Of a DNA stretch of 39,851 bases, positions 8,258-37,936 are shown in pieces. The stretch spans positions 1 through 39,851 of the forward strand of contig CANHYD010000001.1 of NCBI GenBank assembly GCA_947464705.1, given 5' to 3'. The notes under the pieces were generated by a model. It searched no databases. It was not told the DNA's origin and saw only the letters and a program-made list of their open reading frames with translations. The position numbers were made by a program, and so were the translations under genes. The stretch is from Verrucomicrobiota bacterium. GTDB lineage: Bacteria; Verrucomicrobiota; Verrucomicrobiia; Limisphaerales; UBA9464. How positions within the stretch are numbered: the first letter of the stretch is position 1; each line of letters begins with the position of its first letter.

Positions 8258-9013
8258 TCAGGATTTTTTTGACTGAGGCCCCGAGGAGGCCTTCTGGAGG
8301 TCATTGGTCGTGGCCAAAGGACTCGGTGCCGGTTGGAAATCCCTCTTGAGCAGGCGCACAGTCCGCGAAACGCCGTATCGGATGAAGCGCTGCGGACTGT
8401 CCACCGATAACGCCGGTGGTGGATCGGTCTCGATACCCATGGATTCTCTCAGGTATTTTCTGGCGTCATTCAAGGTGGGGGCCTCTCCGGCATTGAATCC
8501 GTCATCGAACTGCCAAAGCACTACCCCGTCATGGACTCGGACGAGACTGAGTTTGATCCCGATTCGCAGGGGTGGGTAGGGCTGGTAGGTCGACAGGCTG
8601 GAAAACAGGATCGCATCCGCCGAAGTCTGCCGTTGGACATCCTGCAGCAGTTGGCTCGGGAGAGCCTCGGTGGTCCGCAATTCCAAGGCACCCTGCAACC
8701 AGCGTCCTTTGGGCGGCGTGTAAAACACCGCCTCAAACGGGCCGTCTTGTCTCAGTTCGGCAATCAAACCCGCCTGAACCTCGGTGGCCGCTTCGGATTG
8801 GGGTGTTCCCAAGCCACCTTCCGGCAAGGCCGTGGGCAGAATGGCCACACGCGAGACGGTTTTCAGGGAGTCAAAACCCACCGAAGAGTGGTTGTACTGG
8901 GTCCGAAAGGGGCCGGTGTAGGAAGGGTCCGTCAGCCGCTTGGCCACTGAGCTGCAACCCATGGCCAGACAAAGCGCCACTCCCAGATTAAGGACATGCA
9001 CCGGCCGGATCAT
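8258..9013 (-). CDS. Lipoprotein of unknown function embedded between fliD and fliS
   Basis: Lipobox LAMGC after a signal peptide. There is a 4-nt overlap with the fliD stop. The pattern VAILP...ADAILFSSLSTY...IKLSLVRVHDGVVLW resembles LpoB/TolB-N/DUF799-type lipoproteins. Confidence 0.65.
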   Translation of the reverse strand: MIRPVHVLNLGVALCLAMGCSSVAKRLTDPSYTGPFRTQYNHSSVGFDSLKTVSRVAILPTALPEGGLGTPQSEAATEVQAGLIAELRQDGPFEAVFYTPPKGRWLQGALELRTTEALPSQLLQDVQRQTSADAILFSSLSTYQPYPPLRIGIKLSLVRVHDGVVLWQFDDGFNAGEAPTLNDARKYLRESMGIETDPPPALSVDSPQRFIRYGVSRTVRLLKRDFQPAPSPLATTNDLQKASSGPQSKKS

Positions 9014-10857: not shown

Positions 10858-11256
10858 TCAATAAACGCAGTCGAGTGAGATCCGCTCACCGCAGGGGCAT
10901 TCCACGGTGACCTTTTGCACTACCTCCCCTACTCGAGTGACCACGATACCGGGCGCCTTGGGCTCCTGGGTCTCGACCGGAGGCACCACTTCGGGAGCGT
11001 ACAAATCTCGCAACGAAATCGGCCGCGACTTGGTCATCGTTCGGGGGGAACGAATACCGGAAAGAATGGTTTCGATGACGGCCTCATCGAGCCCCATGCG
11101 AAGTGCCTCCGAAAGATCGGCCATCGCCTTGTCGGCTGGAATCGAGACCGAGGGCTTGGTGTCGACCGGTTGGGTGACCGGGGAAAACTCTGGCACAACC
11201 GAAGCCGGAGCAAATTCGTACCGAGGAAATGGAACAAACTCAGCGGCCATGATCAC
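10858..11256 (-). CDS. Hypothetical protein (132 aa) between motB and fliD
   Basis: GTG start overlaps the motB stop by 4 nt, and its stop lies 3-9 nt from the fliD start. The C-terminus is VECPCGERISLDCVY. No family was recognised. Confidence 0.5.
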   Translation of the reverse strand: MIMAAEFVPFPRYEFAPASVVPEFSPVTQPVDTKPSVSIPADKAMADLSEALRMGLDEAVIETILSGIRSPRTMTKSRPISLRDLYAPEVVPPVETQEPKAPGIVVTRVGEVVQKVTVECPCGERISLDCVY

Positions 11257-11984
11257 TCGTTCTTGGAAGGCATCTTCCCGGCCCGCACCACAATGGCGAC
11301 CCGCCGGTTGCCGGGATCGTCACGCGGGCGATCCGGCAGCGGTTGCTCGCTGCCCATCCCTGAAATCTTGCGGATCTGTGACGGTTTCACGCCAAAAGAT
11401 TGCAGCAATTGGCGGGCCGAGTTGGCTCGGATAGCTGATAATTCCCACGGATCCCCGTCCGCTGTTCCCGCCTCTCCAGCGGTGTGTCCGTTCAATTCCA
11501 ACTCCACCTGAGGATAGCGGGCCAATTCCCATCCCACGGTCTCGAAGACCAACTGACCATATTCGGTCATACCCCGGGCTCCGGATTGAAACAGCGGTTT
11601 CCCGGGATTGTCGAAGAACGTAATGAGCAATCCTTCGCTCGTCCGCTCCACCTTCACTGAACGGGTGTCCTTCCACTCGGGATTGTCCATCACAGCTCTC
11701 TCCAGGCGTTCATCCAGTCGCTGCATGTAATCCAGCGGGACAGCCGACTGATTTACGAAGAGTTGCGAACGGTTCGGAGTACCATCCGATTCAGAGGTCT
11801 TCTGAGGCAGGACTCCCAGAGAGTTCTTAACCGTGGACATCATCCGGTTGCGGAAGTAACTGGCCAGTTCGCCCTTGGTCTTCTCGTCCTGAGCAACGAT
11901 CCACATGACCATGAAGAATGCCATCATGCCCGTCACAAAGTCGGCATAAGCCACTTTCCATGCACCACCTCCTCCAGCTCCCAT
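11253..11984 (-). CDS. motB: Flagellar stator protein MotB (OmpA-like C-terminus)
   Basis: AWKVAYADFVTGMMAFFMVMW carries the conserved channel Asp. The C-terminal OmpA-like block is ELSAIRANSARQLL...NRRVAIVV. Confidence 0.9.
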   Translation of the reverse strand: MGAGGGGAWKVAYADFVTGMMAFFMVMWIVAQDEKTKGELASYFRNRMMSTVKNSLGVLPQKTSESDGTPNRSQLFVNQSAVPLDYMQRLDERLERAVMDNPEWKDTRSVKVERTSEGLLITFFDNPGKPLFQSGARGMTEYGQLVFETVGWELARYPQVELELNGHTAGEAGTADGDPWELSAIRANSARQLLQSFGVKPSQIRKISGMGSEQPLPDRPRDDPGNRRVAIVVRAGKMPSKNE

Positions 11985-12010: not shown

Positions 12011-12865
12011 TCACTTCATGGTCTTGAGCATCGTCTCCAGCTCGGAAGATGCCGGGCGAACGTCGTCGCTGAGGACGCGGCGGCCCACTTCGCAGGCCAA
12101 CAGAGGTGCGGCTCCATTGGCAAAGCTCACGGTCGCCTCCTTGATGGCATTCATGTACATGGACTCAGCGCGGCCGATGAAGTCGATGTTCGTGGCCAGC
12201 GGTGCAACCACGCCGTAAGAAGCAAAGATGCCGTAGAACGTTCCGCACAGGGCGGAGCTGATGCTCGCTCCGACGACCGTGGTTCCCTGGTCGATCTTAC
12301 CCATCGTCAACACGATGCCCAGAACCGCCGCAACGATTCCGAAGGCCGGCATCGAGTCGGCCACCTTACCCAGCACCTCCACCGGCTCATGGTGCTCGGC
12401 ATGAGCGGTTGCCAGGGATTGCTTCATGAGGGACTCCAGCTGGTCGGGTTTGATTCGGCCATCGACCACTGGCTTCAGACCATCACAGAGGAAGTCCATG
12501 GCGTGATGGTTTCCGTAGAACTTGGGGTACTTCTTGAACAGGCTGCTCCCGGCAGGGTTCATCACGTGTTCTTCCAAGGCGATCATGCCACCGCGACGCC
12601 CAAGGACGAAGAGCTCATAGAGGCACTTCAACAGTTCCTCGTAGTTGGCCTTGTTGTAAGGAGCCCCTTTGAGGGTCGCAGTCAGACCATGAACGATTCC
12701 TTTCAGTGTCTTGACCGGGGCCATGATGACCAAGGCGCCGGCACCCATTCCGAAGATGGGAATGACCTCTCCGGTGTGATACAAGCCCGCTGGGTTGCCA
12801 CCGTTCATGACGAAGCCAAGACAGGTGAGACCGATGATGATGACGAATCCGATGATGACGACCAT
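12011..12865 (-). CDS. motA: Flagellar stator protein MotA
   Basis: Four-TM layout. C-terminal conserved blocks are PAFGIVAAVLGIV and ALCGTFYGIFASYGVVAPLA. Confidence 0.9.
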   Translation of the reverse strand: MVVIIGFVIIIGLTCLGFVMNGGNPAGLYHTGEVIPIFGMGAGALVIMAPVKTLKGIVHGLTATLKGAPYNKANYEELLKCLYELFVLGRRGGMIALEEHVMNPAGSSLFKKYPKFYGNHHAMDFLCDGLKPVVDGRIKPDQLESLMKQSLATAHAEHHEPVEVLGKVADSMPAFGIVAAVLGIVLTMGKIDQGTTVVGASISSALCGTFYGIFASYGVVAPLATNIDFIGRAESMYMNAIKEATVSFANGAAPLLACEVGRRVLSDDVRPASSELETMLKTMK

Positions 12866-12870
12866 AGGGT

Positions 12871-13671
12871 TTAGATGGGATTGACTCGCTTGATGTAGGC
12901 ACTCAGTGCCGAGACGGCCTGCACATGGATCTGACAGGCACGCGCTTCGGTGAATCCGAGGATTTCTCCGATGTCCTTCAATCGGAGCCCCTCGTAATAG
13001 AACATGTTCAGAACCTTTTTTTGAACGTCGGGCAACACTTGGATCCGGTCGCGGATCTGCTGGTGTAATTCCCGTTGGAGCAGCATTTCGGAGGGACCCT
13101 GCTGATTCAGATCCGCCAACTCCCGAGACGGCAGCTCGTCGCTCGCCAAGAAGGCAGGTTCCGAGAGACTTTCGAAGATCACTCCGCGCAACCGATCGAG
13201 CAGTAGCCGGTACTCCGGCATGCCGATTCCAAGTCGCGAGGCGATTTGCTCTTCCGATGGAGGCCCGCCCAATTCGGTGGTCAGTGTATCAATGGTCTCC
13301 TCAAGCGCTTGGCGACGCGCCAGGTCGGACCGGGAGAGCGGGCTGATACGGCGCAGTTCGTCGAAAATCGCATTTTTGATGCGAATGCGGGCAAAATGGG
13401 GAAAGGAAGCGCCTTTGAGCGGATCGTAGGTCCTTCCCGCTTGGACCAAGGCAAAAAGCCCAAGATTAATCCAATCATCCAAATCGGTCCCTGCAGGAAG
13501 CGCCGGGCAGTACCGTTGAACGGTTCTGACCACCAACGGAGCGTATCGGCGCAGCAAGTCCTCCTCACCGTCCGCGGGCCCAACGCTGTCCCGATAGCTA
13601 TGCAGCGCCCGAACCTTATGGGTCAAGGAACTCGGTGCTGCCGGTGCTATTGTGAACTCAGTGGCTGGCAT
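12871..13671 (-). CDS. fliA: Flagellar sigma factor FliA (sigma-28)
   Basis: Region 2 (LINLGLFALVQAGRTYDPLKGASFPHFARIRIKNAIFDELRR) and the region 4 HTH (LKDIGEILGFTEARACQIHVQAV) are both present. Confidence 0.9.
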   Translation of the reverse strand: MPATEFTIAPAAPSSLTHKVRALHSYRDSVGPADGEEDLLRRYAPLVVRTVQRYCPALPAGTDLDDWINLGLFALVQAGRTYDPLKGASFPHFARIRIKNAIFDELRRISPLSRSDLARRQALEETIDTLTTELGGPPSEEQIASRLGIGMPEYRLLLDRLRGVIFESLSEPAFLASDELPSRELADLNQQGPSEMLLQRELHQQIRDRIQVLPDVQKKVLNMFYYEGLRLKDIGEILGFTEARACQIHVQAVSALSAYIKRVNPI

Positions 13672-13915
13672 TACCCCTCGTATTCGCTGGATTTTCCATG
13701 GCCGCCTTCTCGTTACCCGCGGTGGTGGCCAAGTCCGACTCCTTACTGGCTCGATAAATCAACCGGCACCACTGGCGGGAAATGAGCGCCATGACGCCGC
13801 CCGAAATGGCCGCATGAAACAGGCTTTCTACCCAATCAACGCCATTAAATAGGGAGATCGCCAGCAGCAGCAGGGCGACTCCGGTTCCGATGGCGGCGCT
13901 GACAAGTTGAATCAT
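13658..13915 (-). CDS. Small two-TM membrane protein, unknown function
   Basis: Two hydrophobic helices (AAIGTGVALLLLAISLF and AAISGGVMALI). ATGA overlap with the upstream gene and a 14-nt overlap with the fliA start. Confidence 0.5.
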   Translation of the reverse strand: MIQLVSAAIGTGVALLLLAISLFNGVDWVESLFHAAISGGVMALISRQWCRLIYRASKESDLATTAGNEKAAMENPANTRGNASH

Positions 13916-15039
13916 ACGCTGCGAGGCTCTCGGACCTTCGGATGGGATTGCAGCACTTCGAGGATGGCATCATCGCTCAGGAAGGGCTTCCGGGCATCCA
14001 ACACACCTTCCCACTCGATCATCGCGGACGAGAGGAGCCGGGCCTTCATGGCAGGATGGGTTGGAACCTCGTCTTGTGAGGCGTGGTTGCGGACCGAACG
14101 CATCTCCCGCTCGAGCCAGGACACCGAAGCCAAGGGTGTCTGAAGTTCGCGGGGCAAATCCACGACCGAGAGTGCCGAGGCCTGACCCGGACCCGGTGCC
14201 TTCACCCAGGCTGAAATGGGGTGACCTTCGGACAAGTGCTTCGCCCAGCCCTCAGCCAAAGCCATCGGATCGCCACGGAAACCCGGATCGGACCGCCGCC
14301 CTTTGACGCTGGCGGTCGCTCCGCGAACCCGTGACAGAAATTGTTTCTGGCAAACCTGTAATCGGGCCTGCGGCCACTGGTTGGCTGCAGCCTCGAAGAG
14401 CCCGGGGGTCATCCGGGCGGTCAAACCACAAATCTCTCCCATACCCCGCTGTTCCAGGGCGCGAAAAATCTCAGACCATTGGGGATTGCTGGTCGTACCC
14501 AACGCGAAATCGGCGACCATCCGATACCCATGCTGATCCACCGCGACCAGGCAAGTGGCCGGCAGGCACTCCGATCCGGAGTTTTGGCTGATCCGCTCCC
14601 GCCAGGTCAGCACGAAGAGCCAGAAGTGCCTCGGGAGTCTCCGGCGGCGCCATCCCCGGATTTGGGAATCCAAAGTGAGGGCCGCCCGCTCCACCTGGGA
14701 CTCGTCAAAGCGCAGCCCGCATCGTTCATCGAGCCAGTCTCTGGCCGCATTGGGTGCCTCTCTTCGGAGCACGGCTGCAGCGACGGCTACCTGCCGGGCT
14801 CGATCCATCCAGGTGCCTTGGTCCAGAGGCGGTGGTCGAAACGGTGTGAAGACAACAGCTCCATCCTCGGGTGATCGAGATCCCGGAGTTGATGTCGGGA
14901 ACTCTTGGGGCAAATTGGCCACCAATTCCCGCAGGATTGAAGCCAGGCGTGAGTGCCCTTCGCGGGCCAAGACCTGGATCGGGTTCTGAGGAACCACGGG
15001 ATCCTGGAGCTCCATGGCAGATGAGTTTTCCAAAGTCAT
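13912..15039 (-). CDS. IS256/mutator-family transposase homologue, apparently catalytically inactive (domesticated?)
   Basis: Colinear blocks against IS256 Tnp, ours first. CGLRF...WRRRRL...WLFVLTWRE against CGKSVS...W.NR.L...YPYLMTDVLYIKVRE. AVDQHGYRMVADF...WSEIFRALEQRGM against AIGITKDGDREIIGF...W..F...LKERGL. CGLTARMTPGL against LVISDAHKGL. RLQVCQKQFLSRV against WQRCQVHFLRN. SWLEREMRSVR against ERLNQEVRRR. Confidence 0.6.
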   Translation of the reverse strand: MTLENSSAMELQDPVVPQNPIQVLAREGHSRLASILRELVANLPQEFPTSTPGSRSPEDGAVVFTPFRPPPLDQGTWMDRARQVAVAAAVLRREAPNAARDWLDERCGLRFDESQVERAALTLDSQIRGWRRRRLPRHFWLFVLTWRERISQNSGSECLPATCLVAVDQHGYRMVADFALGTTSNPQWSEIFRALEQRGMGEICGLTARMTPGLFEAAANQWPQARLQVCQKQFLSRVRGATASVKGRRSDPGFRGDPMALAEGWAKHLSEGHPISAWVKAPGPGQASALSVVDLPRELQTPLASVSWLEREMRSVRNHASQDEVPTHPAMKARLLSSAMIEWEGVLDARKPFLSDDAILEVLQSHPKVREPRSV

Positions 15040-16811
15040 GGAAGTAGTGATGAATAAGCCGTCACGTGGACCAGAGAGTTGTTGGCGACCATCGGTGCGG
15101 GCGGAGCCACCTCACCCCGCTCCTCGACCTGCATTCCGGGTTCGGCGTCGACGCCACTGACGCGAAGGAAGTCATGAATGTAGCGGGCTGAAAGAGCGAT
15201 TGCCCCGGAGTTGGGGTGGGACTTGGGTGCTGGGTCGGTCACGATTCCCAGGATTTGACCCGATACATCGAGCACCGGGGCGCCCACCGTGGATAAGGGC
15301 ATCCGGTCGGAGAGAGTGAAGTAGCGTGGATCGGCCTTGAGCCCCGAATTTCGCACCACACGCGCCCGGTGTGCCTTGGGCTGGAGGCTATCGCGCGAAC
15401 TGGCTCCTGGCTCCATGTGCATGCAGAACACCCAAGAACCCGGAGCGATGGAGCTGCGGTTGGTTTGGACCGCCAACGAATGAAAAGACCGGGCTCCGCC
15501 TTGGATTTGCACAATGGCTAAGCCCAAGAAGGGATCCACTTTGACTGGGCTCGCCCGAAGTTTGCCACCGACAATGCCCACCGTAATGCTGCGGGCAGAA
15601 CTGGGCACATGCGCCGCACTGGTCAAGACATGCCCGGCTCCGGAGACAATGAATCCCGCGCCGAAGGCACTGGGCATTTCGTCGGTCATCCGGGAGTCGG
15701 CTTGGATGGCGGCCACCCCGTCATCTCGGAACGAGGAAGGAACGGGCCGAAAATCACTAACCAAAGCGCGGCCGCGATCCAGATCGACCGGCGCCATGAT
15801 CCGAAGCAACTGACGCCGAGCCGCTGAGGCGACCTCCAGTCCGCTCATCTCGGACAGCGTCCACCAGCGGTAAGCTTCTGCCATGTCTGCGCTCATGACC
15901 CGACCTCGGTAGTAATACTGGCCCAAAAGGTACTGAGCCTCCCGATGCCCATGCTCTGCGGCCTTCCGCAGGTAGTTCTCGGCCATGACTGGATTTTGAA
16001 CACTGCTTCCCGAATCGTAGATCACGCCCAATTGATACTGGGCAGGCACGAAGTCGGAGTCCGCTGCCCTCCGGTACCATTGAATCGCCCGGGCCATATC
16101 CACAGGCACCCCCCGACCATAGTGATGGAGGCTCGCCAGGCTGCACATGGAAGGAACAAAGCCGTGCTCCGCAGCGCGAGTGAACCAAACCACCGCATTG
16201 GAGGCTTGGTTTTGATCCAAATTGAGCTGCCCTAACAGGTGCTGAGCGGCGACAAGTCCTTCACCGGATGCATGGTCCAGGTACTTCCGGGCCGCCGACC
16301 AATCCAGAGGCAGACCGTTGGTCCCCGTGTAATAGCTGCGTCCCAAATTGTAGAGAGCCACCGGATTGCCCAGTTCGGCTGCCTGCCGGTAGTAGGACAT
16401 GGCCTTGGCAATGTCCTTGGGCACTCCCCGCCCTGTTTCATGCAAGTATCCCAGATTCACCAAAGCCGGTGAGCTCTGGCTCTGGGCGGCCCGTGAATAG
16501 GCGTCCAGAACGACCGGGGTCGCGCTCGTGGCCTGCTTGAGTTGGTTGGAGAGACCGACGTTGAACCAAGACCAAGAAGTGTCGGACGGGCCCGAGGGGT
16601 CGGTCACCCGGACCACAGGTTGCAGTACCTCATTGGTCACCTCTGCCGAGGTTCTCAATGGAACCAGCCCCCCTTTTTCAGCGCCTTCGGACGGCGGATC
16701 GGCTGCCCACAGCGAGCCCCCCACCGCGGACACCATCATGCCCAGAAGGAGCCCAGACAGGGCCCTCCGGATCCGGGTTCCCGTGGATTGCTTTTGGAGC
16801 GATACCGACAT
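15036..16811 (-). CDS. Secreted Sel1-repeat protein with C-terminal trypsin/HtrA-like domain
   Basis: ATG 16811 gives the signal peptide MSVSLQKQSTGTRIRRALSGLLLGMMVSAVGGSLWA; TTG 16841 is an alternative start. About 6-7 Sel1 repeats are present (for example A..YYRQAAELGNPVALYNLG, AIQWYRRAADSDFVPAQYQLG). The C-terminal GAGFIVSGAGHVLTSAAHV...GLAIVQI...STVGAPVLDVSGQILGIVT is colinear with the HtrA protease fold. Confidence 0.75.
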   Translation of the reverse strand: MSVSLQKQSTGTRIRRALSGLLLGMMVSAVGGSLWAADPPSEGAEKGGLVPLRTSAEVTNEVLQPVVRVTDPSGPSDTSWSWFNVGLSNQLKQATSATPVVLDAYSRAAQSQSSPALVNLGYLHETGRGVPKDIAKAMSYYRQAAELGNPVALYNLGRSYYTGTNGLPLDWSAARKYLDHASGEGLVAAQHLLGQLNLDQNQASNAVVWFTRAAEHGFVPSMCSLASLHHYGRGVPVDMARAIQWYRRAADSDFVPAQYQLGVIYDSGSSVQNPVMAENYLRKAAEHGHREAQYLLGQYYYRGRVMSADMAEAYRWWTLSEMSGLEVASAARRQLLRIMAPVDLDRGRALVSDFRPVPSSFRDDGVAAIQADSRMTDEMPSAFGAGFIVSGAGHVLTSAAHVPSSARSITVGIVGGKLRASPVKVDPFLGLAIVQIQGGARSFHSLAVQTNRSSIAPGSWVFCMHMEPGASSRDSLQPKAHRARVVRNSGLKADPRYFTLSDRMPLSTVGAPVLDVSGQILGIVTDPAPKSHPNSGAIALSARYIHDFLRVSGVDAEPGMQVEERGEVAPPAPMVANNSLVHVTAYSSLLP

Positions 16812-16824
16812 TCGAGGCCCTCGC

Positions 16825-16840
16825 AGCAACTCGCAGGCCA
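16825..16840 (-). promoter_or_regulatory. Candidate sigma-54 promoter for the Sel1/fliA/motAB string
   Basis: The minus strand reads TGGCCTG-CGAG-TTGCT against the consensus TGGCACG-N4-TTGCW. The predicted +1 is near 16814, 3 nt before ATG 16811. Confidence 0.35.
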
Positions 16841-16859: not shown

Positions 16860-16875
16860 TGGCACGACCCGTGCT
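16860..16875 (+). promoter_or_regulatory. Candidate sigma-54 promoter for the flgB operon
   Basis: TGGCACG-ACCC-GTGCT has a single mismatch to the consensus TGGCACG-N4-TTGCW. The predicted +1 is near 16886, 1 nt before ATG 16887. Confidence 0.4.
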
Positions 16876-16886
16876 GCGGGGCAGGT

Positions 16887-17270
16887 ATGACCGAAGCGCT
16901 GTTTGGCAGCGTCAACTACATGGCGGAGAAACGAAGCCTGGATGCGTGCGTCGAACGGCAGCGCGCCCTGGCGTCGAACATCGCCAACCTGGAGACGCCC
17001 GGTTTTCGGCGGATGGACGTCCCGGCGCAGTTCCGGAGCCAACTCTCCGAGGCGGTCCGCCGCCAGGATGTGTCGACCATGAATACGCTGCGGCCCAGTG
17101 CCTCGGTGGACTATTCGGCCCCGGCGAGGACCCCGGATGGGAATTCGGTCAACCTGACTGACGAGTTGATTGCCATGCAGGACAACGGATTGGAGCACAG
17201 CCTTCATGTTCAAATGATTTCCGGTCGTATGTCGCGGCTCCGGGCCGCCATCAGCGGGAGGATGTCGTGA
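16887..17270 (+). CDS. flgB: Flagellar basal-body rod protein FlgB
   Basis: SNIANLETPGFRRMDV is the rod-family N-terminal motif. An in-frame alternative start exists at ATG 16920. The longer ORF from 16542 overlaps the divergent gene and was rejected. Confidence 0.85.
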   Translation: MTEALFGSVNYMAEKRSLDACVERQRALASNIANLETPGFRRMDVPAQFRSQLSEAVRRQDVSTMNTLRPSASVDYSAPARTPDGNSVNLTDELIAMQDNGLEHSLHVQMISGRMSRLRAAISGRMS

Positions 17271-22941: not shown

Positions 22942-23355
22942 ATGGGTCGATTCCGTTTCAGCCTGGAAACATTGCTTAAGATACGCGCCTCTCAGGAGAG
23001 TTCCGCGGCTCAAGCTTTGGCTCAGGCCAATCAGGAACAGTCCCGTTGCCAAACCGATCTGGACCAGGTGATGTTCGACAGTCGATCACTGAACGACTCC
23101 CTCTCCGAGGGCGGAGTCGCCGCATCCATCTCCATTGCGTTACGGCCTGGTCTGCGACTCAACGCCGAGCGCGCCCGAGTCGCTTTGGCGGCCAAACAAG
23201 TGGTTGTTAGCCAATGCTTGGCGGAGTGGCAGCAGGCCAAGCTCCGGTTGAGCCTCCTCGAAAAACTTCGCGAAGCCCGCCTCAAGGAACACCAGCGATC
23301 GGAACGGTTGGCCGAAGAGCGCTGGCTCGACGAGCGCGTCATCCAAAGCCTCTGA
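22942..23355 (+). CDS. fliJ: Flagellar export protein FliJ
   Basis: 137-aa coiled-coil protein with N-terminus FRFSLETLLKIRASQE. It lies directly after fliI. Confidence 0.65.
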   Translation: MGRFRFSLETLLKIRASQESSAAQALAQANQEQSRCQTDLDQVMFDSRSLNDSLSEGGVAASISIALRPGLRLNAERARVALAAKQVVVSQCLAEWQQAKLRLSLLEKLREARLKEHQRSERLAEERWLDERVIQSL

Positions 23356-23360
23356 CTCCC

Positions 23361-24116
23361 ATGCGCACCCTCCTCCTGGCCTTTTTGATCGTTCTGCTCG
23401 GTATTGGAACTTCGGTCGCCACTTTCCTCTGGGGAGGCAAGATGGCACGGGCCCGCATTCAGGCGGCCCTTTCCCAGATCATCGAAGCGTCTCAGGCATC
23501 GGCGGCGATCAAGGCTCCGGAACAAGACATTCTCCAAGATCCGCCCGATGTCCAACCGGCTGGCAACGAGCGTCAGACCGAGCTGAGTTTGGCCGCTTTG
23601 GAGGCCATGCGGGAAACTTCCGAGCCGGGATCGCTGCGATTCGACAATCCGGATGTGGTCAATTTGCTCAACCAATTGCGCAGTCGCCAGGAGTATCAAG
23701 ACAGTCGCGAAAAGCGTCTGAAGGAACTTGAAGAGCGGATCCGCATGGAAATGCAGAACCTGAATTTGGCCACCCAGTGGATTGCTCAGGCACGAGTCGC
23801 CCAAGACAACCTGTTGACCAATCGGATCACCTACCTGCGAGTGGAAGAGCAGAGAAGTCTCTTGGAGCACGGTCGCCGACTCTCGGCTCTGCCGCCGGTC
23901 CAGGCGGTGGCCATCCTGACCAACTACACTCCCGATGAGATCGCCCGGACCCTGACCGTAATCAACTCGACCAATGCGTCGTCTCTGTTAGGAGCCTTGG
24001 TCGGCACGGGCGATTCGGGGGTCCGACTGGCTGCCGATATCTCCCGCCGGATGATGCACATTTCGCTGCGGTCGCCCGACGGGACCAATTCCAGCGCAGC
24101 GGCACCCACACCATGA
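23361..24116 (+). CDS. MotE/FlbB/YlxF-like flagellar protein (MgtE-N-like domain)
   Basis: An N-terminal TM helix and a coiled coil. The C-terminal LSALPPVQAVAILTNYTPDEIARTLTVINSTNASSLLGAL resembles the MgtE-N/FlbB motif. Its position between fliJ and fliK matches B. subtilis ylxF. Confidence 0.5.
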   Translation: MRTLLLAFLIVLLGIGTSVATFLWGGKMARARIQAALSQIIEASQASAAIKAPEQDILQDPPDVQPAGNERQTELSLAALEAMRETSEPGSLRFDNPDVVNLLNQLRSRQEYQDSREKRLKELEERIRMEMQNLNLATQWIAQARVAQDNLLTNRITYLRVEEQRSLLEHGRRLSALPPVQAVAILTNYTPDEIARTLTVINSTNASSLLGALVGTGDSGVRLAADISRRMMHISLRSPDGTNSSAAAPTP

Positions 24117-26590
24117 TATCCGGCAATTTGAAGGCGCAGGATTCAATCCCGCGTGCCTCCCTGCCCTTTTCGTGGAATGCCGATGGAGATTCGGGATCGC
24201 AGTCCGCCGGGCCAACTGGAGGGGCAGCCTTCTTGCAGCATCTCGATACTGCCCAGTCTGTCCATTCTCAGGCGACCGGGGGTGCTCCTAAATCTAAGGA
24301 CCCAACGTCTCACGACAGAGAGTTGCCGTCCGATGCACCCTCCAATGAGATCTCCCTGCCGCCCTCGGTTCAGCAGTCGGCTAGGCCTTTGGTCAAGCCG
24401 AGCCGGAAGGTAGCAGCCCCTCCCCGGGCAATGATCCATGCCAAGGCAAGATTTGTGGGTCCGAGCGCCGGTTCAGCCCCCGCGTCCCACGGGTTGGGCG
24501 TGACCCCGTCAGCGATTGCGGCCCGGCTTTCCTGTGACAATCCTCAGGCACACTCCCCCAGATTAAATGCGGAGTTGCCCAACCGGCCTCTCCCAACCTC
24601 AGCGGTTGATACCCGAACTGAGTGGCCACACGGATTTCCGCAACGTCCGCTCATGGATTCCCTGCGTTCGACGGAATCCAAGATTGTCTGGTCGCACGAA
24701 CAATCTTCGGATCATTACCCATCATCGGGTTCCCTGCGGCCTGCCAACGATACGTTGAATAGACCCTCGCCGGGTGTTGCGTCACCTGTGTTGAAAGAGT
24801 CCGGCTCCAGGCCAGCGTGGGCATCTCCATCGAATCCGCTCTCCGGGGGGCACCCCCCGGTTGCGTCGGTCCTCGACGAGGTGGCACCAAAGCTTTCGAT
24901 GGAAGCACACGGGGGGGCATCGGCTTCAGAAACCCTGGCGAATCCATCCATTGACGACACAACCGTCGTAGCGGCTTTGAATCGAGCCAATCGGGCTTCA
25001 CGGGTGGCCGGTGCGATGGAATCTCTCCAGTCGAACACCAGTTCCCGTTCGTCAATCAGCTTGGTCCCGTCGGATCTAAAGCAGCCGATTTCAAGCGAAG
25101 TCCGTGACGCTGCTCGTCGGGCCGTGGCGCAATCACAAATACTGGAGTTCCCGTCGATTTCCGAACCGCCTGTTCGTCATACCACCAATGATGCATTGCG
25201 CAGCCTTGTTCTAGATCTCAGCACCAGCGCTGGTTCCAATTCCATTTCGGAATTCGGTCCTGCCTTGGCTGAACGTTTGGGGAAAACTGACGGGAGGCCC
25301 TCTTCAGAACCACAAGTGGCCTTAGGGCAGGTTTCTGTGAGTCCAAGACCAGTGACCGCGTCGCTCACCTCGGAGATCGTTGTTCAGCCTGCCTCAGAGT
25401 TCAGCCGACGGGCTCACGTTCCCGGCGGAAACCCAGATCCGGGCTTGGATCCATTTCGTGGAAAAATCTCAACGACCCATCCAACGCCTCTCCACGCAAG
25501 TGAGTCACCTGCCACTTGGGTGAGTGATTTACCATCGGAGTTGGTGCCCTCAGACGTTCCCGAAGATTTCGCCGATTCAGGAAAATCATCAGTTTCAGTG
25601 GCGACTACCGAGTCGGGCTTTCAGTCGGTGAAGCACATCGAATCGCGCTTGCAAGACGGTGAGTTCATTCCGCGAGAAAAAAACTCGATACCTCCCGGTT
25701 CAGAGTCTTTGGCGAGCACATCGACGACGGACGACATCGAACTGAGTTCAACCATCGATTCCAGTCTCACCGTCGCGCAATCCCAGCCCCTGCCGTCGGG
25801 ACCCTCTTCACGGTCGGCGATGCGATCTCCTCTGGCACGAAATCCCAATGCTGGAGAATTCAATGACACAGCCGAGGTGTCCCTCGATTCTGAAAAGAGT
25901 TTTCCGACACTCTTAGACCTGAAGCAAGGCACCGAGGCTTCTAAGACCTCAGAGTCCCTTGCCCGAGACGGTGGTTCCGACTCCCCGTCACCTCGAGACC
26001 CAGACAGCTCACCAGGCGTTGTCGTTCCTACTGCCGCACCATTTCCAGGGGGCCCTCAGAGCGGACCTATCCAAGAACGTTTGGATGGCAGAATTGCCAA
26101 CCAATCCAAACCCGAAGAATCCAACCTATCGCCCTCAGTCCTTCAGGAAACCCAGAAACCGGGCGCTGTTCGGCTGGTTCAACTGGATTCGCCGGGATCA
26201 GGCAGTTTGGAGCTCCGCATTCAAGAGGTGGGTGAAAAGCTCATTATCCGGACACAAGATCTAGTGGGTTCCCTCGAAGGCCAAAGCGCCCAGTGGAAAG
26301 AGCTTCAGCAACGTCTCGAATCCAACGGCATTGTCCTCATGCCCATCGAGCATTCTATCAGTGGCATTGCTACGCCGATCGAATCTCAAAATGTCTCTAC
26401 CGATTCGCGGCACACAGTCTGCTACGACGGAGGCATGGGCTCCTCAGGTCGCGACGGTTCGGATCCTCGTTCGTCGAGTGGTCGAGCCCGCGCACTCCAC
26501 CAATCCGCTCACCCGGACTCTTCGGAGTCATCCGATGAGTCCATAAAATCTGGCGAAGCGGTGCCGGCTTCCCGGCAGTGGTGGGCCTGA
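24113..26590 (+). CDS. fliK: Flagellar hook-length control protein FliK (very long, Ser/Pro-rich)
   Basis: ATGA overlap with the upstream gene. The C-terminal block VRLVQLDSPGSGSLELRIQEVGEKLIIRTQDLVGSLEGQSAQWKELQQRLESNGIVL matches the FliK C-terminal (Flg_hook) domain. It lies before flgD. Confidence 0.7.
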   Translation: MISGNLKAQDSIPRASLPFSWNADGDSGSQSAGPTGGAAFLQHLDTAQSVHSQATGGAPKSKDPTSHDRELPSDAPSNEISLPPSVQQSARPLVKPSRKVAAPPRAMIHAKARFVGPSAGSAPASHGLGVTPSAIAARLSCDNPQAHSPRLNAELPNRPLPTSAVDTRTEWPHGFPQRPLMDSLRSTESKIVWSHEQSSDHYPSSGSLRPANDTLNRPSPGVASPVLKESGSRPAWASPSNPLSGGHPPVASVLDEVAPKLSMEAHGGASASETLANPSIDDTTVVAALNRANRASRVAGAMESLQSNTSSRSSISLVPSDLKQPISSEVRDAARRAVAQSQILEFPSISEPPVRHTTNDALRSLVLDLSTSAGSNSISEFGPALAERLGKTDGRPSSEPQVALGQVSVSPRPVTASLTSEIVVQPASEFSRRAHVPGGNPDPGLDPFRGKISTTHPTPLHASESPATWVSDLPSELVPSDVPEDFADSGKSSVSVATTESGFQSVKHIESRLQDGEFIPREKNSIPPGSESLASTSTTDDIELSSTIDSSLTVAQSQPLPSGPSSRSAMRSPLARNPNAGEFNDTAEVSLDSEKSFPTLLDLKQGTEASKTSESLARDGGSDSPSPRDPDSSPGVVVPTAAPFPGGPQSGPIQERLDGRIANQSKPEESNLSPSVLQETQKPGAVRLVQLDSPGSGSLELRIQEVGEKLIIRTQDLVGSLEGQSAQWKELQQRLESNGIVLMPIEHSISGIATPIESQNVSTDSRHTVCYDGGMGSSGRDGSDPRSSSGRARALHQSAHPDSSESSDESIKSGEAVPASRQWWA

Positions 26591-35583: not shown

Positions 35584-36591
35584 ATGAATCCCCAATTCTC
35601 TGATCGATCCACGATTCCCCAAACGGGCTTGATGCTCTTCAAAGGCCATACGGCTGAAGAAGCGTTGGCCAAGGTGCATCAGAGTCTCGGGTCTTCGGCC
35701 ATTGTGGTGCAACTCAAGCGTGTCCCATCCGCCGGCGTTGGTCGGATCTGGGGAGCTATGGAGATTGAAGCGTGGGCGCAAGCACCGGCACCGCCCGCAC
35801 CGCCCCCGCCCGCACCAGTCTCACCTGTTGCCAAGGTGCGCTCCGCTCCGAAAGAAGCCCGGACTATGGATCTGCTGAGGAGCCTGGGTCTCAATGAGGA
35901 ATCGGTCCGGCGAGTGCACCAGTCCATTCCTGTTTCGAGCGCGCCGTTGACGAACCAGGAAGCCTGTCTCCAGTTGGGAGCGGCCCTGCTCGCTGCGTGG
36001 GACAACGCCACTCGGCGGATTCCGAAGACACCCCGGCGGATAGCTCTGATCGGCGCAGCAGGATCTGGAAAAAGCGTCGCAACGGCCAAGTGGATCACCA
36101 TTGAGTCGCTCCGCCACCAGCAGGAATGCCGGATCTGGTGCCTCGATGGAATCGTCGCCAACTCGGCCGAGTTTTTATCTCAGCACGCCGAACTGTTGGG
36201 GATTCCCGTGGAGACTACCTGGAATCCCGGGTTGCCGCCGTGTGCCCGGGAGTTTCTCGACCTGCCGGGTTGGAACCCCTCCGATCCCGATGTCTCTGAT
36301 CGGATGGCCAATTTGCTCGACCGCTTTGAGCCCGACTGCCTGCTGCTGACCCTCAACGCCGCCTATGAGGCATCCATTCTCCAGAATCAGACGATGCAGT
36401 TCATGCCATTCCGGCCGCATGGGTTGCTCCTGACGCATTTGGACGAGTGTGAGTCACCAGCCAAAGTCTGGGACCTCGTCCTTGCGAGCGGGATAGCTGT
36501 CTTCGGGACGTCGAGCGGTCGCTTTATCCCAGGCGGCTTCGATCGCACGGGTGGGGAGACGTGGATGGAGCGCTTGTTCGAGCAGGTGTGA
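35584..36591 (+). CDS. flhF: Flagellar SRP-type GTPase FlhF
   Basis: N-terminal B-domain-like FKGHTAEEALAKVHQSLGSSAIVV. G1 is IGAAGSGKS, the G3-like motif is LDLPG and the G4-like motif is LLLTHLDE. An alternative start is ATG 35632. Confidence 0.75.
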   Translation: MNPQFSDRSTIPQTGLMLFKGHTAEEALAKVHQSLGSSAIVVQLKRVPSAGVGRIWGAMEIEAWAQAPAPPAPPPPAPVSPVAKVRSAPKEARTMDLLRSLGLNEESVRRVHQSIPVSSAPLTNQEACLQLGAALLAAWDNATRRIPKTPRRIALIGAAGSGKSVATAKWITIESLRHQQECRIWCLDGIVANSAEFLSQHAELLGIPVETTWNPGLPPCAREFLDLPGWNPSDPDVSDRMANLLDRFEPDCLLLTLNAAYEASILQNQTMQFMPFRPHGLLLTHLDECESPAKVWDLVLASGIAVFGTSSGRFIPGGFDRTGGETWMERLFEQV

Positions 36592-36612
36592 ACGGAGGCG
36601 CTTCTGCCATCA

Positions 36613-36644
36613 GTGGGCCGGTCGCGCTCGGCCAAACAGCCCAC
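36613..36644. terminator. Hairpin between convergent flhF and HDOD genes; candidate bidirectional terminator
   Basis: GTGGGC (36613-36618) pairs with GCCCAC (36639-36644). An alternative inner stem is GGCCG/CGGCC. It lies 22 nt after the flhF stop and 2 nt after the HDOD stop. The T-run (CTTT) is weak. Confidence 0.3.
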
Positions 36645-36646
36645 CT

Positions 36647-37936
36647 TTAGAAAAGCTTCGCGAGTTCAGCCGCCTTGCTGACGGATTCGTTGCAGACCTG
36701 ATCCAAGGCCTCTCGGGGGACCTGATACCGCTGGCTGACCTTGTTGGCGAAGATCTCGTTCCACTCCTCGCCGTGGGACGGATGGAGCGAACTCACATAG
36801 TGCGCCGGATCAGGACGAGTCGGGGCCGCGCTATCATTGTGGTCCTTGAGGCACAGCATCACATCCTCTGGCAATTCCCAGTTGAGTGCCACCAAGGCCC
36901 CGACCTCGGCATGGTCCCATCCGAGAGTCTCATGTTCCAGCGCGTGGAGATCCCGCTTCTCTTCGACGGCGGTCGAAAAGATCTTCATATAGTCGTCCTT
37001 CTTGCTGCTGACGATCAACGGCACGCTGAGATCCTGCAGGAACCCGGCGGTGAAGGAGAGGTTGGCTTTGGAGGGTTGGACAATGTCTGCCAGTTCCCGG
37101 GCCAGGACCGCGCGACGGGAGCTGGCCTTCCAGAAGTCACCCAGCGCGAACTTCGGATGGGTTTGGCTGGGCAATGCGGCCTTCGAACCGACGATCATCA
37201 CGATACGCTCGAGGTCGGCATTGCCCATGAGCATGATGGCGTGATCCAGGGACTGGACCTTACTTTTCGGCGAGTACGCGGTGGAGTTCACCGTGTTCAT
37301 GACCTTGCCGACCAACTGGGCATCGACCGACATGACCTCCATGATCTTTCCGGGAGTCGTGTCAGGATCCCGGAGCCGCCGCAGGGTTTCGAAAACGGCT
37401 TTCCGAAAACGCGGGACCTCGACATCCCCGAGGAGTTGGCGGATACGATCTTTGACGTCGTTCTGAGACCACCCCGCGTACGGATTGACGATCGCCGGTG
37501 CGTCTGGAACGACGATGCCAGACGGCGTGGTGGCCGATCCCGGCACCCCCACCATGGCTCCCCCCACCGCAGTGCCACGAATCAACCGGGGCCGAGGCCG
37601 CTCGATGACCTGGATGATCGGTCGGCGCGGAGCGATGATGGCTCCCTTGCCTCGGCGACCGCCCTTCCCGGCTGGTGACTTTGGCTTGGGTGTCGGCTTC
37701 GGCGGGGAGGGCGGAATGACCGGCTTGGTCCCTCCATGCCCATGGGTTGCCTTCCAAACCGACAAGGCTGGGTTGGCTTCGGCCTCGTGGCTTCCCAGTT
37801 TCAGGCCCTTCCCTAGCAAGGCACCTTGAACCAACGAGCCGAGCGAACGAGCCAATCGAGCGGCTCTTCCGGGTTTCGCGACCGGAGCAACCGAGGAAGG
37901 CGCTGGTTTTAGGGGAGATCCCTCGACTGGTTTCAT
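36647..37936 (-). CDS. HDOD-domain signalling protein with Pro/Lys/Gly-rich N-terminal region
   Basis: Motifs: VMSVDAQLVGKVMNTVNSTAYSPKSKVQSLDHAIMLMG, SFTAGFLQDLSVPLIV, LGWDHAEVGALVALNWELPEDV. Start is set at ATG 37936 because the longer ORF would overlap the upstream gene. Confidence 0.8.
   Translation of the reverse strand: MKPVEGSPLKPAPSSVAPVAKPGRAARLARSLGSLVQGALLGKGLKLGSHEAEANPALSVWKATHGHGGTKPVIPPSPPKPTPKPKSPAGKGGRRGKGAIIAPRRPIIQVIERPRPRLIRGTAVGGAMVGVPGSATTPSGIVVPDAPAIVNPYAGWSQNDVKDRIRQLLGDVEVPRFRKAVFETLRRLRDPDTTPGKIMEVMSVDAQLVGKVMNTVNSTAYSPKSKVQSLDHAIMLMGNADLERIVMIVGSKAALPSQTHPKFALGDFWKASSRRAVLARELADIVQPSKANLSFTAGFLQDLSVPLIVSSKKDDYMKIFSTAVEEKRDLHALEHETLGWDHAEVGALVALNWELPEDVMLCLKDHNDSAAPTRPDPAHYVSSLHPSHGEEWNEIFANKVSQRYQVPREALDQVCNESVSKAAELAKLF

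Follow-up and report, generated by a model that had tools for sequence, protein, structure and literature searches.

On the reverse strand of the 39,851-nucleotide stretch of DNA analyzed here (the window), a tightly packed operon holds a gene for an exported Sel1-repeat protein, a gene for a 375-aa protein, a small membrane-protein gene, and the genes fliA, motA, and motB. We call the 375-aa protein TnpL; all of its copies are annotated as "hypothetical protein." The operon and its upstream element are as follows.

16825..16840 (-): sigma-54-type -24/-12 element, TGGCCTGCGAGTTGCT, upstream of the Sel1/trypsin-like gene (conservation, pattern match)
15036..16811 (-): Sel1-repeat protein gene, first in the operon; 591 aa, exported, with Pfam Sel1 and Trypsin_2 (the Sel1/trypsin-like gene)
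13912..15039 (-): TnpL gene (name used here), 375 aa (ORF, Pfam, NCBIfam, hhalign, Foldseek, dN/dS)
13658..13915 (-): gene lying between TnpL and fliA; 85-aa product, two predicted membrane helices
12871..13671 (-): fliA (sigma-28), with Pfam Sigma70 regions 2, 3, and 4; the sources name its homologues FliA
12011-12865 (-): motA, downstream in the operon (ORF, Pfam)
11253-11984 (-): motB, downstream in the operon (ORF, Pfam)

The start of the Sel1/trypsin-like gene at 16811 was set by promoter position together with gene calls. Spacings within the operon run from -14 to +26 nt. The Sel1/trypsin-like gene ends and TnpL starts in an ATGA stop/start overlap at 15036-15039, a further ATGA at 13912-15 joins the end of TnpL to the start of the 85-aa gene (an overlap of 4 nt), and the 85-aa gene overlaps fliA by 14 nt. 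The initial annotation of this DNA had described a gene within a fliA-motAB operon with ATGA overlaps to both neighbors; both overlaps are present, and fliA, motA, and motB were confirmed by Pfam. TnpL is predicted to be co-transcribed with fliA, motA, and motB and translationally coupled to its neighbors, so that, given the shared operon and this coupling, it would be made whenever sigma-28 and the stator genes are made. Judged by gene arrangement, operon membership suggests that TnpL may have a flagellar role.

Across 10 loci, the divergent intergenic region shows just two conserved blocks, of which the sigma-54-type box is one, and the conserved motifs in this upstream region are two sigma-54 boxes and no other. 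The same type of arrangement is also found upstream of the homologous first gene in outgroup loci. The pattern occurs 3 times in the window versus 1.6 expected, which is not above chance alone; the sigma-54 assignment is therefore based on conservation of the box across loci, not on the window count. We infer that the element at 16825..16840 may function as the promoter of the operon. A sigma-70 promoter scan returned none, and terminator-like sites were no commoner than chance and fewer than in shuffled controls.

We also considered that FliA, the trypsin-like protein, and the small membrane protein might form a DegS/RseA/sigma-E-like module into which TnpL had inserted. When aligned with HtrA2 and with its orthologues, the trypsin-like domain proved to lack the catalytic Ser and Asp, and the module in this form was rejected because the nucleophile is absent in all orthologues. 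Every locus, with or without TnpL, had a positional counterpart of the 85-aa gene with the same architecture.

Homology, fold, and catalytic residues of TnpL

We compared TnpL with profile libraries and found that it matched Pfam Transposase_mut (PF00872) with an E value of 3.2e-8 and 33.3 bits, over the cut-off of 21. Against the NCBIfam IS256 model it scored 60 bits (E value 1.9e-16), whereas real IS256 transposases score 290-400 bits; because 60 bits is below the equivalog cut-off of 150, we treat TnpL as an IS256 homologue and not as an equivalog. Using hhalign, the TnpL family aligned with 26 bona fide IS256 transposases over residues 66-363 (probability 99.45%, E value 4.8e-22), with matching blocks CG, W..R.L, VDxxGYR, W..F..L..RG, QxCQxxF, and LER. 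In a Foldseek comparison of the predicted fold, the only matches at E <= 0.001 were to the ISCth4 (IS256-family) transposase, five chains in all, with E values of 5.5e-13 to 2.3e-10 and TM scores of 0.5-0.58; the next match was Hermes at approximately 6e-3. The relation to ISCth4 emerged from this fold comparison only; a PDB sequence-profile search with the TnpL family gave nothing relevant, and its sole match (E value 0.9) was by chance. When Pfam was run on the whole protein and on residues 1-140 and 230-375, up to E = 10, only Transposase_mut was returned. TnpL had no Pfam match to a FlgM domain and has a transposase-like fold instead. The lack of a FlgM domain stays compatible with FliA binding by other means.

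The family is small and isolated. When 1.84 billion representatives were searched exhaustively, only two full-length 50% clusters were found, beyond which scores fall from 389 to 85 bits, and the nearest real IS256-type proteins reach <=85 bits at about 20% identity. In the tree the family is monophyletic with a long stem. Its sequences derive from uncultured metagenome-assembled genomes. The closest divergent IS256-like relatives (P0028, P0031, P0032, and P0034) were considered as source elements and lie on short non-flagellar contigs; some of them also have substituted catalytic residues.

To display the domain map, we list segments and key codons of TnpL from the N terminus, with conservation values within the family and AlphaFold2 (AF2) confidence where these define a segment.

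14917..14982 (-): leucine-rich helical hairpin, residues 20-41; AF2 helices 20-27 and 29-41, pLDDT about 73-77
14851..14916 (-): proline-rich disordered linker, residues 42-63; pLDDT below 50
14632..14850 (-): motif FTPFRPPPLDQGTW(M/L)DRARQVA, then a three-helix domain of helix-turn-helix fold, residues 64-136 (conservation, AF2)
14353..14631 (-): RNase H-like core strands and helices, residues 137-229; AF2 pLDDT above 90
14608-14610 (-): L144 codon, within the core
14413-14415 (-): R209 codon, within the core
14140..14352 (-): helical insertion domain, residues 230-300; conservation 0.54
14350-14352 (-): C230 codon, insertion domain
14341-14343 (-): Q233 codon, insertion domain
13996..14139 (-): C-terminal core helices, residues 301-348, with E310 at codon 14110-14112 (hhalign, site counts)

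Within the family, L24, L32, L36, and L39 of the N-terminal hairpin do not vary. The hairpin lines up with the helices at the N terminus of IS256 proteins, in the place of the dimerization domain as defined for IS256 transposases in PMC7780238; we infer a dimerizing role for residues 20-41. The linker that follows is the least conserved segment of the protein (mean 0.44) and sits in place of the N-terminal DNA-binding (NDB) domain of IS256 transposases. Conservation peaks at 0.98 in the 22-residue block 64-85 and is 0.82 for residues 86-136, and the AF2 helices of this region (77-91, 97-107, and 113-131) have pLDDT above 87. The insertion domain is the most variable structured part of TnpL; its role in IS256 transposases, and that of the CxxH motif, are described in PMC7780238.

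We counted residues at the catalytic positions in 18 TnpL family members versus 42 transposases, using hhalign column mapping with the codons checked. The position of the first catalytic Asp is L144 in TnpL and is L, H, F, or V in 18/18 members, compared with D in 39/42 transposases. At the second, R209 in TnpL, all 18 members have R or K and 41/42 transposases have D. The Glu of the triad is retained as E310 in every member (18/18). At the His position of CxxH, 40 of the 42 transposases have H and 17 of the 18 members have Q (Q233 in TnpL), the sole exception among members being the most basal one (P0024), which keeps the His; C230 of the motif is kept in TnpL. The initial annotation had read the protein as colinear with IS256 transposases, listing matching blocks, and had noted substitution of the first two DDE aspartates with retention of the glutamate. 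Its reading of the homology was borne out by Pfam, NCBIfam, and hhalign, and that of the triad by the profile alignment. The change of the CxxH His to Q233 was absent from it. The retained E310 and C230 might hint at residual chemistry.

Copy number, synteny, and selection

Eleven inverted pairs were found near TnpL, all of them short, imperfect, and inside coding sequence; none brackets the ORF, and terminal inverted repeats flanking it are thus absent among these pairs. The window contains one TnpL copy and no other IS256 copy was seen there. Each of 12 species-level representative genomes has a single locus, in a copy scan based on two peptide patterns that badly degraded copies could escape. 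The order Sel1/trypsin-like gene, TnpL, small two-helix membrane protein gene, fliA, motA, and motB was found in 20/20 family loci (L001-L019 and L025), at identities down to 41%, and TnpL identity declines in step with FliA identity across loci.

Three related lineages, with FliA at 43-46% identity, have the Sel1/trypsin-like gene, the small membrane-protein gene, fliA, and motA, with motB also visible in the two complete loci, and no trace of TnpL was found in these three outgroup loci, where the flanking genes are coupled directly. An operon that lacks TnpL in the outgroups points to a clade-specific insertion that was then fixed. As sister lineages have the operon without it, TnpL is an accessory and not a core part.

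The protein is under strong constraint. Ten orthologues have 375 intact codons with no frameshifts or stops, and dN/dS for TnpL is 0.06-0.10 at unsaturated dS values of 0.29-0.75, comparable to the 0.10-0.14 of the flanking genes (a dN/dS of 1.1 for the Sel1/trypsin-like gene versus L016 was left out as an artefact of extracted coordinates). Along the body of the gene synonymous change is even, dropping in the 25 codons at either end; non-synonymous change reaches its minimum in codons 76-175, and across the 20 loci synonymous divergence is saturated. The proposal that the gene has no room for terminal inverted repeats and is domesticated rather than an insertion sequence accordingly agrees with what we found: no flanking repeats, a single copy, synteny, low dN/dS, and sister operons without TnpL.

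DNA-binding determinants and alternative explanations

In ISCth4, the NDB domain makes base-specific subterminal contacts (PMC7780238). The NDB block of IS256 proteins, GYRNG..R.L.TRvG.l.l.vP, has no counterpart in the TnpL alignments. Mutation of four helix-turn-helix residues abolishes or strongly reduces DNA binding by IS256, according to Hennig & Ziebuhr 2010 as cited in PMC7780238. These contact residues, Y, G, T, and R, correspond to V90, R93, P96, and N97 in TnpL. Across the family the G is replaced by R or K, the T by P or S, and the R by N, D, or E, this last site being acidic in 12/18 members; the Tyr position is variable. The pI of family members ranges from 6.2 to 9.6 with a median of 8.6, compared with 9.25 for transposases, and net charge is unremarkable. 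If TnpL binds DNA, these replacements suggest that it would do so otherwise than the ancestral transposase. What TnpL binds instead does not follow from the loss of the ancestral contact residues.

TnpL could be a sequence-specific DNA-binding regulator of flagellar genes resembling FHY3/FAR1, perhaps one that reads relics of the old transposon ends. The initial annotation had offered a DNA-binding regulator as its candidate function, and part of this stands: TnpL keeps the helix-turn-helix three-helix fold, which AF2 predicts at high confidence. This region is also the most conserved part of TnpL and has several invariant arginines in residues 80-134, the gene is predicted to share a transcript with that of a sigma factor, and most domesticated transposases in the literature retrieved are DNA binders. 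However, the proposal is weakened by the missing NDB domain and by the consistent replacement of 3/4 IS256 DNA-binding residues, with the fourth variable. In addition, about half of the family has a pI of roughly 7.1 or below, and the upstream intergenic region offers no conserved motif beyond the two sigma-54 boxes. We consider such a regulator possible, though rather unlikely.

The other explanations fare worse. The Transposase_mut score over the Pfam gathering threshold, and the fact that insertions into operons are common, would fit an ordinary IS256 insertion sequence, active or recently decayed, that lies in the flagellar cluster by chance. This is refuted by the replacement of both catalytic aspartates in 18/18 members and of the CxxH His in 17/18, the absence of terminal inverted repeats and of room for any, the single copy at a position fixed in 20 loci despite saturated synonymous divergence, the intact frames with dN/dS of 0.06-0.10, and the 60 bits on the NCBI IS256 model versus the cut-off of 150, leaving it almost no probability. 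It is also very improbable that TnpL is a dominant-negative transposition inhibitor, a dead transposase that still dimerizes and poisons active ones, with its place in the operon incidental. Truncated or inactive transposases do inhibit in other systems, for example the Tn5 inhibitor, and the leucine-rich helices in the place of the dimerization domain are conserved; however, heterodimerization is unlikely because the nearest real IS256-type proteins are so distant (<=85 bits, about 20% identity), the determinants of DNA-end binding are lost, and no IS256 copy appears in the 40-kb window. An inhibitor would also leave unexplained the strict retention in a sigma-54-controlled motility operon, an arrangement that would leave non-motile cells without the protein. 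Finally, the ATGA overlaps at both ends and the reduced synonymous change in the first and last 25 codons could suit a protein without function, whose frame is kept for translational coupling or for an embedded signal that expresses downstream genes including fliA. We give this little credence, as amino-acid constraint is strong throughout (dN/dS 0.06-0.10, with the 22-residue block 98% conserved), evolution at synonymous sites is unconstrained within the gene body and therefore indicates no hidden nucleotide element, and outgroups couple the flanking genes directly without TnpL.

Proposed origin, role, and parallels

Overall, we conclude that TnpL is a domesticated pseudo-transposase and propose a non-enzymatic flagellar role for it, a combined reading to which we assign a probability of roughly 0.7. 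TnpL appears to be an uncommon example, among bacteria, of a transposase that became a host gene. In the ancestor of a clade of freshwater Verrucomicrobiales, a single ancient IS256-family insertion entered the flagellar operon downstream of the sigma-54-type box, separating the small membrane-protein gene from the Sel1/trypsin-like gene. The element then shed its terminal repeats, catalytic aspartates, CxxH histidine, and subterminal DNA-binding domain while keeping the transposase fold (leucine-rich hairpin, three-helix domain, RNase H-like core, and insertion domain), and has since been inherited vertically as a single copy under purifying selection. Within the flagellar programme, we favor binding or regulation over enzymatic activity: TnpL would act without catalysis, probably as a dimer. 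Its remodeled, near-invariant surface 64-136 may bind a partner and thereby adjust the transition from sigma-54 to sigma-28 in flagellar expression, or motor assembly. A protein, for instance FliA or the membrane protein encoded by the neighboring gene, is a plausible target, at a little under even odds, and newly evolved DNA or RNA is a less likely one. That TnpL, in fixed ratio with sigma-28, directly controls FliA activity or flagellar promoter use is a tentative suggestion that we rather doubt.

Compared with IS256 family transposases, represented by ISCth4 TnpA (PDB 6XG8, 6XGW, 6XGX), TnpL is colinear over residues 66-363, shares the three-helix domain, RNase H-like core, and helical insertion domain, and retains the motifs LCG, W.xR.L, GxDxxGxR, W..F..L..RG, QxCQ, and LER. 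Unlike them, it lacks both catalytic D residues, the CxxH His, the NDB domain, and the ancestral helix-turn-helix contact residues, and unlike IS256 elements it has no inverted repeats and is single copy, syntenic, and vertically inherited.

In eukaryotes, the domestication of transposases has ample documentation; FHY3/FAR1 and MUSTANG are plant host genes from Mutator-like transposases. Like TnpL, these are immobile host genes of Mutator-superfamily origin under purifying selection. However, FHY3/FAR1 are eukaryotic and known transcription factors, with an N-terminal FAR1/WRKY-GCM1 zinc finger and a C-terminal SWIM domain, neither of which Pfam detected in TnpL, and the DNA-binding determinants of TnpL are eroded. 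The Tn5 Inh protein is a non-catalytic transposase derivative that keeps oligomerization surfaces; proteins of this type are encoded within, and act on, active elements, whereas TnpL occurs by itself within a host operon and is only very remotely related to active transposases. Bacterial recruitments have mostly involved other enzyme classes, namely Cas1, TnpB/Cas12/TldR, and tyrosine or serine recombinases. TldR, a TnpB-derived RNA-guided repressor of flagellin genes, is likewise bacterial, and in it a transposon-encoded nuclease that lost its catalytic activity was taken up into flagellar gene control (PMC10705468). It differs in having an unrelated fold (RuvC-like TnpB with a guide RNA) and in being prophage-encoded instead of part of a core flagellar operon. 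The TnpL locus gave no pointer to a guide RNA. A review from 2022 on how prokaryotes have recruited mobile elements makes no mention of DDE transposases or IS256, and our targeted literature searches found no precedent for a case like TnpL.

If TnpL does directly control FliA activity or flagellar promoter use, it would be the first bacterial DDE (IS256/Mutator-type) transposase made into a dedicated component of the flagellar regulatory hierarchy, and would parallel plant FHY3/FAR1 in a prokaryote. At this locus, sequence shows where the element inserted, what the ancestral operon looked like with that site empty, how catalytic and DNA-binding residues were lost stepwise, and that purifying selection has acted over the long term. 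TnpL offers a test case for the reuse of an RNase H-fold transposase scaffold after loss of catalysis and end recognition, and an unannotated gene is flagged as belonging to the flagellar programme of abundant freshwater Verrucomicrobia in a lineage-specific way.

Homology of TnpL to IS256 transposases

TnpL is encoded between two other genes of the fliA operon:

15036-16811 (-): Sel1/trypsin-like gene, product exported, five Sel1 repeats plus a trypsin-like domain
13912-15039 (-): TnpL ORF, 375 aa
13658-13915 (-): small membrane-protein gene, 85 aa, two membrane helices predicted, charged tail

The TnpL start ATG shares an ATGA with the TGA of the upstream gene (15036-15039), and its stop TGA shares another with the ATG of the downstream gene (13912-13915). 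Pfam Transposase_mut matched residues 101-236 (E = 3.2 × 10−8, 33.3 bits versus a gathering score of 21), and the NCBI IS256 model matched residues 84-322 (E = 1.9 × 10−16, 60 bits, under the cut-off of 150). Comparing the TnpL-family profile with that of 26 genuine IS256 transposases gave a probability of 99.45% (E = 4.8 × 10−22, residues 66-363). We modelled TnpL with AlphaFold2 from a 64-sequence alignment (mean pLDDT 85.8, pTM 0.78); in Foldseek against the PDB, the sole matches at E ≤ 0.001 were five chains of the transposase of ISCth4, an IS256-family member (PMC7780238), with E values from 5.5 × 10−13 to 2.3 × 10−10 and TM 0.5-0.58. Hermes followed at E ~6 × 10−3, and our first structure model gave the same ranking. 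TnpL is homologous to IS256 transposases, and it fails as an insertion-sequence transposase on every functional criterion.

Outside the family, the nearest relatives (P0028, P0031, P0032 and P0034; loci L020, 266-1357, and L021, 65-1237) are IS256-type proteins exceeding the NCBI IS256 threshold at 172-225 bits. They have an N-terminal helix and an LDKGxRSERAxKLA block in common with TnpL. In several, one catalytic residue is exchanged in the alignment (E for S or K, or D for A), so that they may be decaying elements, further domestications or cases of a shifted alignment. P0028 and P0034, which we looked up, are on short non-flagellar contigs.

Residues were mapped by profile-profile and multiple alignments of 18 TnpL-family members against 42 transposases.

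Catalytic-domain positions in TnpL of the window, the TnpL family (n = 18) and transposases
First Asp: window L144; family L5, H11, F1, V1; transposases D in 39/42
Second Asp: window R209; family R16, K2; transposases D in 41/42
Cys of CxxH: window C230; family C18; transposases C in 42/42
His of CxxH: window Q233; family Q17, H1; transposases H in 40/42
Glu: window E310; family E18; transposases E in 40/42

No counterpart of the N-terminal DNA-binding (NDB) block (GYRNG..R.L.TRvG.l.l.vP) was found in the TnpL alignments; its place is taken by a disordered, proline-rich, variable linker (residues 42-63). The three-helix domain is kept in the predicted structure (helices 77-91, 97-107 and 113-131, pLDDT above 87). 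Mutation of Y111, G114, T117 or R118 in IS256 abolishes or strongly reduces DNA binding (PMC7780238). At these positions the TnpL family is variable (Tyr), has R/K in 17/18 members (G114), P/S in 18/18 (T117) and N/D/E/P/T with no R in any of the 18 (R118); in 12/18, an acidic residue has replaced the recognition-helix Arg. Roughly half of the family members have pI values at or below about 7.1. With these losses of catalytic, NDB and helix-turn-helix residues, TnpL has neither the catalytic chemistry of the enzyme nor its ancestral way of recognising transposon ends. It is unlikely that TnpL is a transposition inhibitor.

Conservation, copy number and origin of the TnpL locus

The order Sel1/trypsin-like gene, TnpL, small membrane-protein gene, fliA, motA, motB was the same across the 20 loci of the family (L001-L019 plus L025, TnpL identity down to 41%), as was the divergent upstream series flgB-flgC-fliE-fliF-fliG-fliH-fliI. 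Percent identities of TnpL and FliA fall together (94/97, 87/95, 77/90, 56/78 and 51/74). Three outgroup loci (L022-L024), with FliA at 43-46% identity, have the Sel1/trypsin-like gene, a small membrane-protein gene of the same two-helix architecture, fliA and motA, with motB also seen in the two complete loci; no trace of TnpL was found in them. The simplest reading is one insertion into an already existing operon, followed by fixation. In L023 (4522-7701) and L024 (4526-7702), the Sel1/trypsin-like gene is nearly double in length (~1,058 aa) and shares 4 nt with the small membrane-protein gene, which follows it directly, so the insertion site is an otherwise tightly coupled junction; in L022, the closest outgroup, 107 nt separate the two genes.

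An ordinary insertion sequence is an unlikely explanation of TnpL: neither inverted repeats bracketing the ORF nor a second copy was found in the window. Scanning one genome per species (185,579 species) with two peptide motifs returned 12 TnpL loci in 12 assemblies, one locus each, all of them Verrucomicrobiota metagenome-assembled genomes (some mislabelled Akkermansia); family sequences come from uncultured organisms throughout. When 1.84 billion representative proteins were searched exhaustively with an HMM, the family consisted of fragments and just two full-length 50% clusters; scores then fell from 389 to 85 bits at the first ordinary IS256-type proteins. Genuine transposases among the matches scored 290-400 bits on the NCBI IS256 model, and the TnpL family formed a single clade with a long stem in a neighbour-joining tree. 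All database copies carry the name "hypothetical protein."

It is likewise unlikely that the frame is retained solely for translational coupling. Pairwise dN/dS of TnpL was 0.06-0.10 at dS 0.29-0.75, compared with 0.02-0.04 for fliA, ~0.10 for the flanking Sel1 gene and 0.10-0.14 for the small gene, and the frame of 375 codons is uninterrupted in ten orthologues. Synonymous differences were even over the gene body (0.24-0.36) and fell only within 25 codons of either end, while non-synonymous differences reached their minimum in codons 76-175. Conservation was highest (98%) at residues 64-85 (FTPFRPPPLDQGTW-DRARQVA) and lowest in the linker and insertion domain. These results show that TnpL derives from a transposase, has lost catalysis and mobility, is present in single copy and evolves under purifying selection.

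Putative promoters and flagellar gene cluster

flgB (+, start at 16887) and the Sel1 gene (-, start at 16811) diverge from an intergenic region of 75 bp, which holds two conserved blocks, and no others, across ten loci:

16860-16875 (+): sigma-54-type -24/-12 box TGGCACGACCCGTGCT, facing flgB
16825-16840 (-): sigma-54-type -24/-12 box TGGCCTGCGAGTTGCT, facing the Sel1 gene

Because the ORF finder's TTG start (16841) falls inside a sigma-54 box, the true Sel1-gene start is ATG 16811 (591 aa). Equivalent back-to-back boxes occupy the same places in L022-L024. The promoter assignment, made by pattern and conservation, suggests that both flagellar operons, fliA included, may be RpoN-dependent. From 16811 to at least 8258, neighbouring genes overlap or lie ≤26 nt apart, and a sequence scan found no enrichment of terminator-like sites; the operon is probably co-transcribed.

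The trypsin-like domain of the first operon gene is catalytically dead when aligned to HtrA2 (nucleophile Ser to Val, Asp to Gly), and the nucleophile is missing in all orthologues, including those of TnpL-less lineages; fliA is thus preceded by two consecutive pseudo-enzymes. In NCBIfam, this protein is weakly similar to MotX, a stator-ring protein of Vibrio (E = 7 × 10−12). It may be a periplasmic stator scaffold. The 85-aa gene lies directly upstream of fliA with a 14-nt overlap and is without a Pfam match. All related loci, whether or not they carry TnpL, have a gene of the same architecture before fliA, and the 85-aa protein is a possible membrane-bound partner of sigma-28.

The window as a whole is a large cluster of flagellar genes, also with rod or hook genes, fliL, fliM, fliP, fliR, flhB, flhA and probable flhF. 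Further genes are as follows:

35584-36591 (+): probable divergent FlhF, 335 aa, after flhA, with a weak SRP54-type GTPase match only
36551-37678 (+): 375-aa ORF without a Pfam family, next after the probable FlhF gene
23214-26590 (+): ORFs of 300 aa and 825 aa without a Pfam family, after fliJ
8258-9013 (-): 251-aa ORF without a Pfam family, after fliD
10858-11256 (-): 132-aa ORF without a Pfam family, after motB

The ORF at 36551-37678 is at the place held by flhG and fliA in many other bacteria. The 300-, 825-, 251- and 132-aa ORFs have orthologues at the same positions in related loci.

Proposed role of TnpL and known parallels

The TnpL gene is placed for joint production with sigma-28 and the stator proteins. 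TnpL would act through binding and not catalysis, probably as a dimer formed via its conserved leucine-rich N-terminal hairpin, with residues 64-136, remodelled and nearly invariant, as the likely surface for binding. From these sequence features, we consider it somewhat more probable that TnpL binds a protein (FliA, the neighbouring membrane protein or some other part of the flagellar system) than that it has acquired a new nucleic-acid target, because the DNA-contact residues and NDB are lost, the former Arg is so often acidic and pI is low in about half of the family.

The eukaryotic Mutator-derived host genes FHY3/FAR1 and MUSTANG resemble TnpL in kind, though their zinc-finger domains are absent from it in Pfam scans. 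Among bacteria, the closest thematic parallel is TldR (PMC10705468), a catalytically dead TnpB co-opted to control flagellin, whose fold is unrelated. DDE transposases and IS256 go unmentioned in a review on how mobile elements are recruited in prokaryotes, and we found no description of the TnpL family or of any IS256-derived bacterial host gene in full-text literature searches. On the basis of these comparisons, we classify TnpL as a case of transposase domestication, known in kind, in an unusual host and context.
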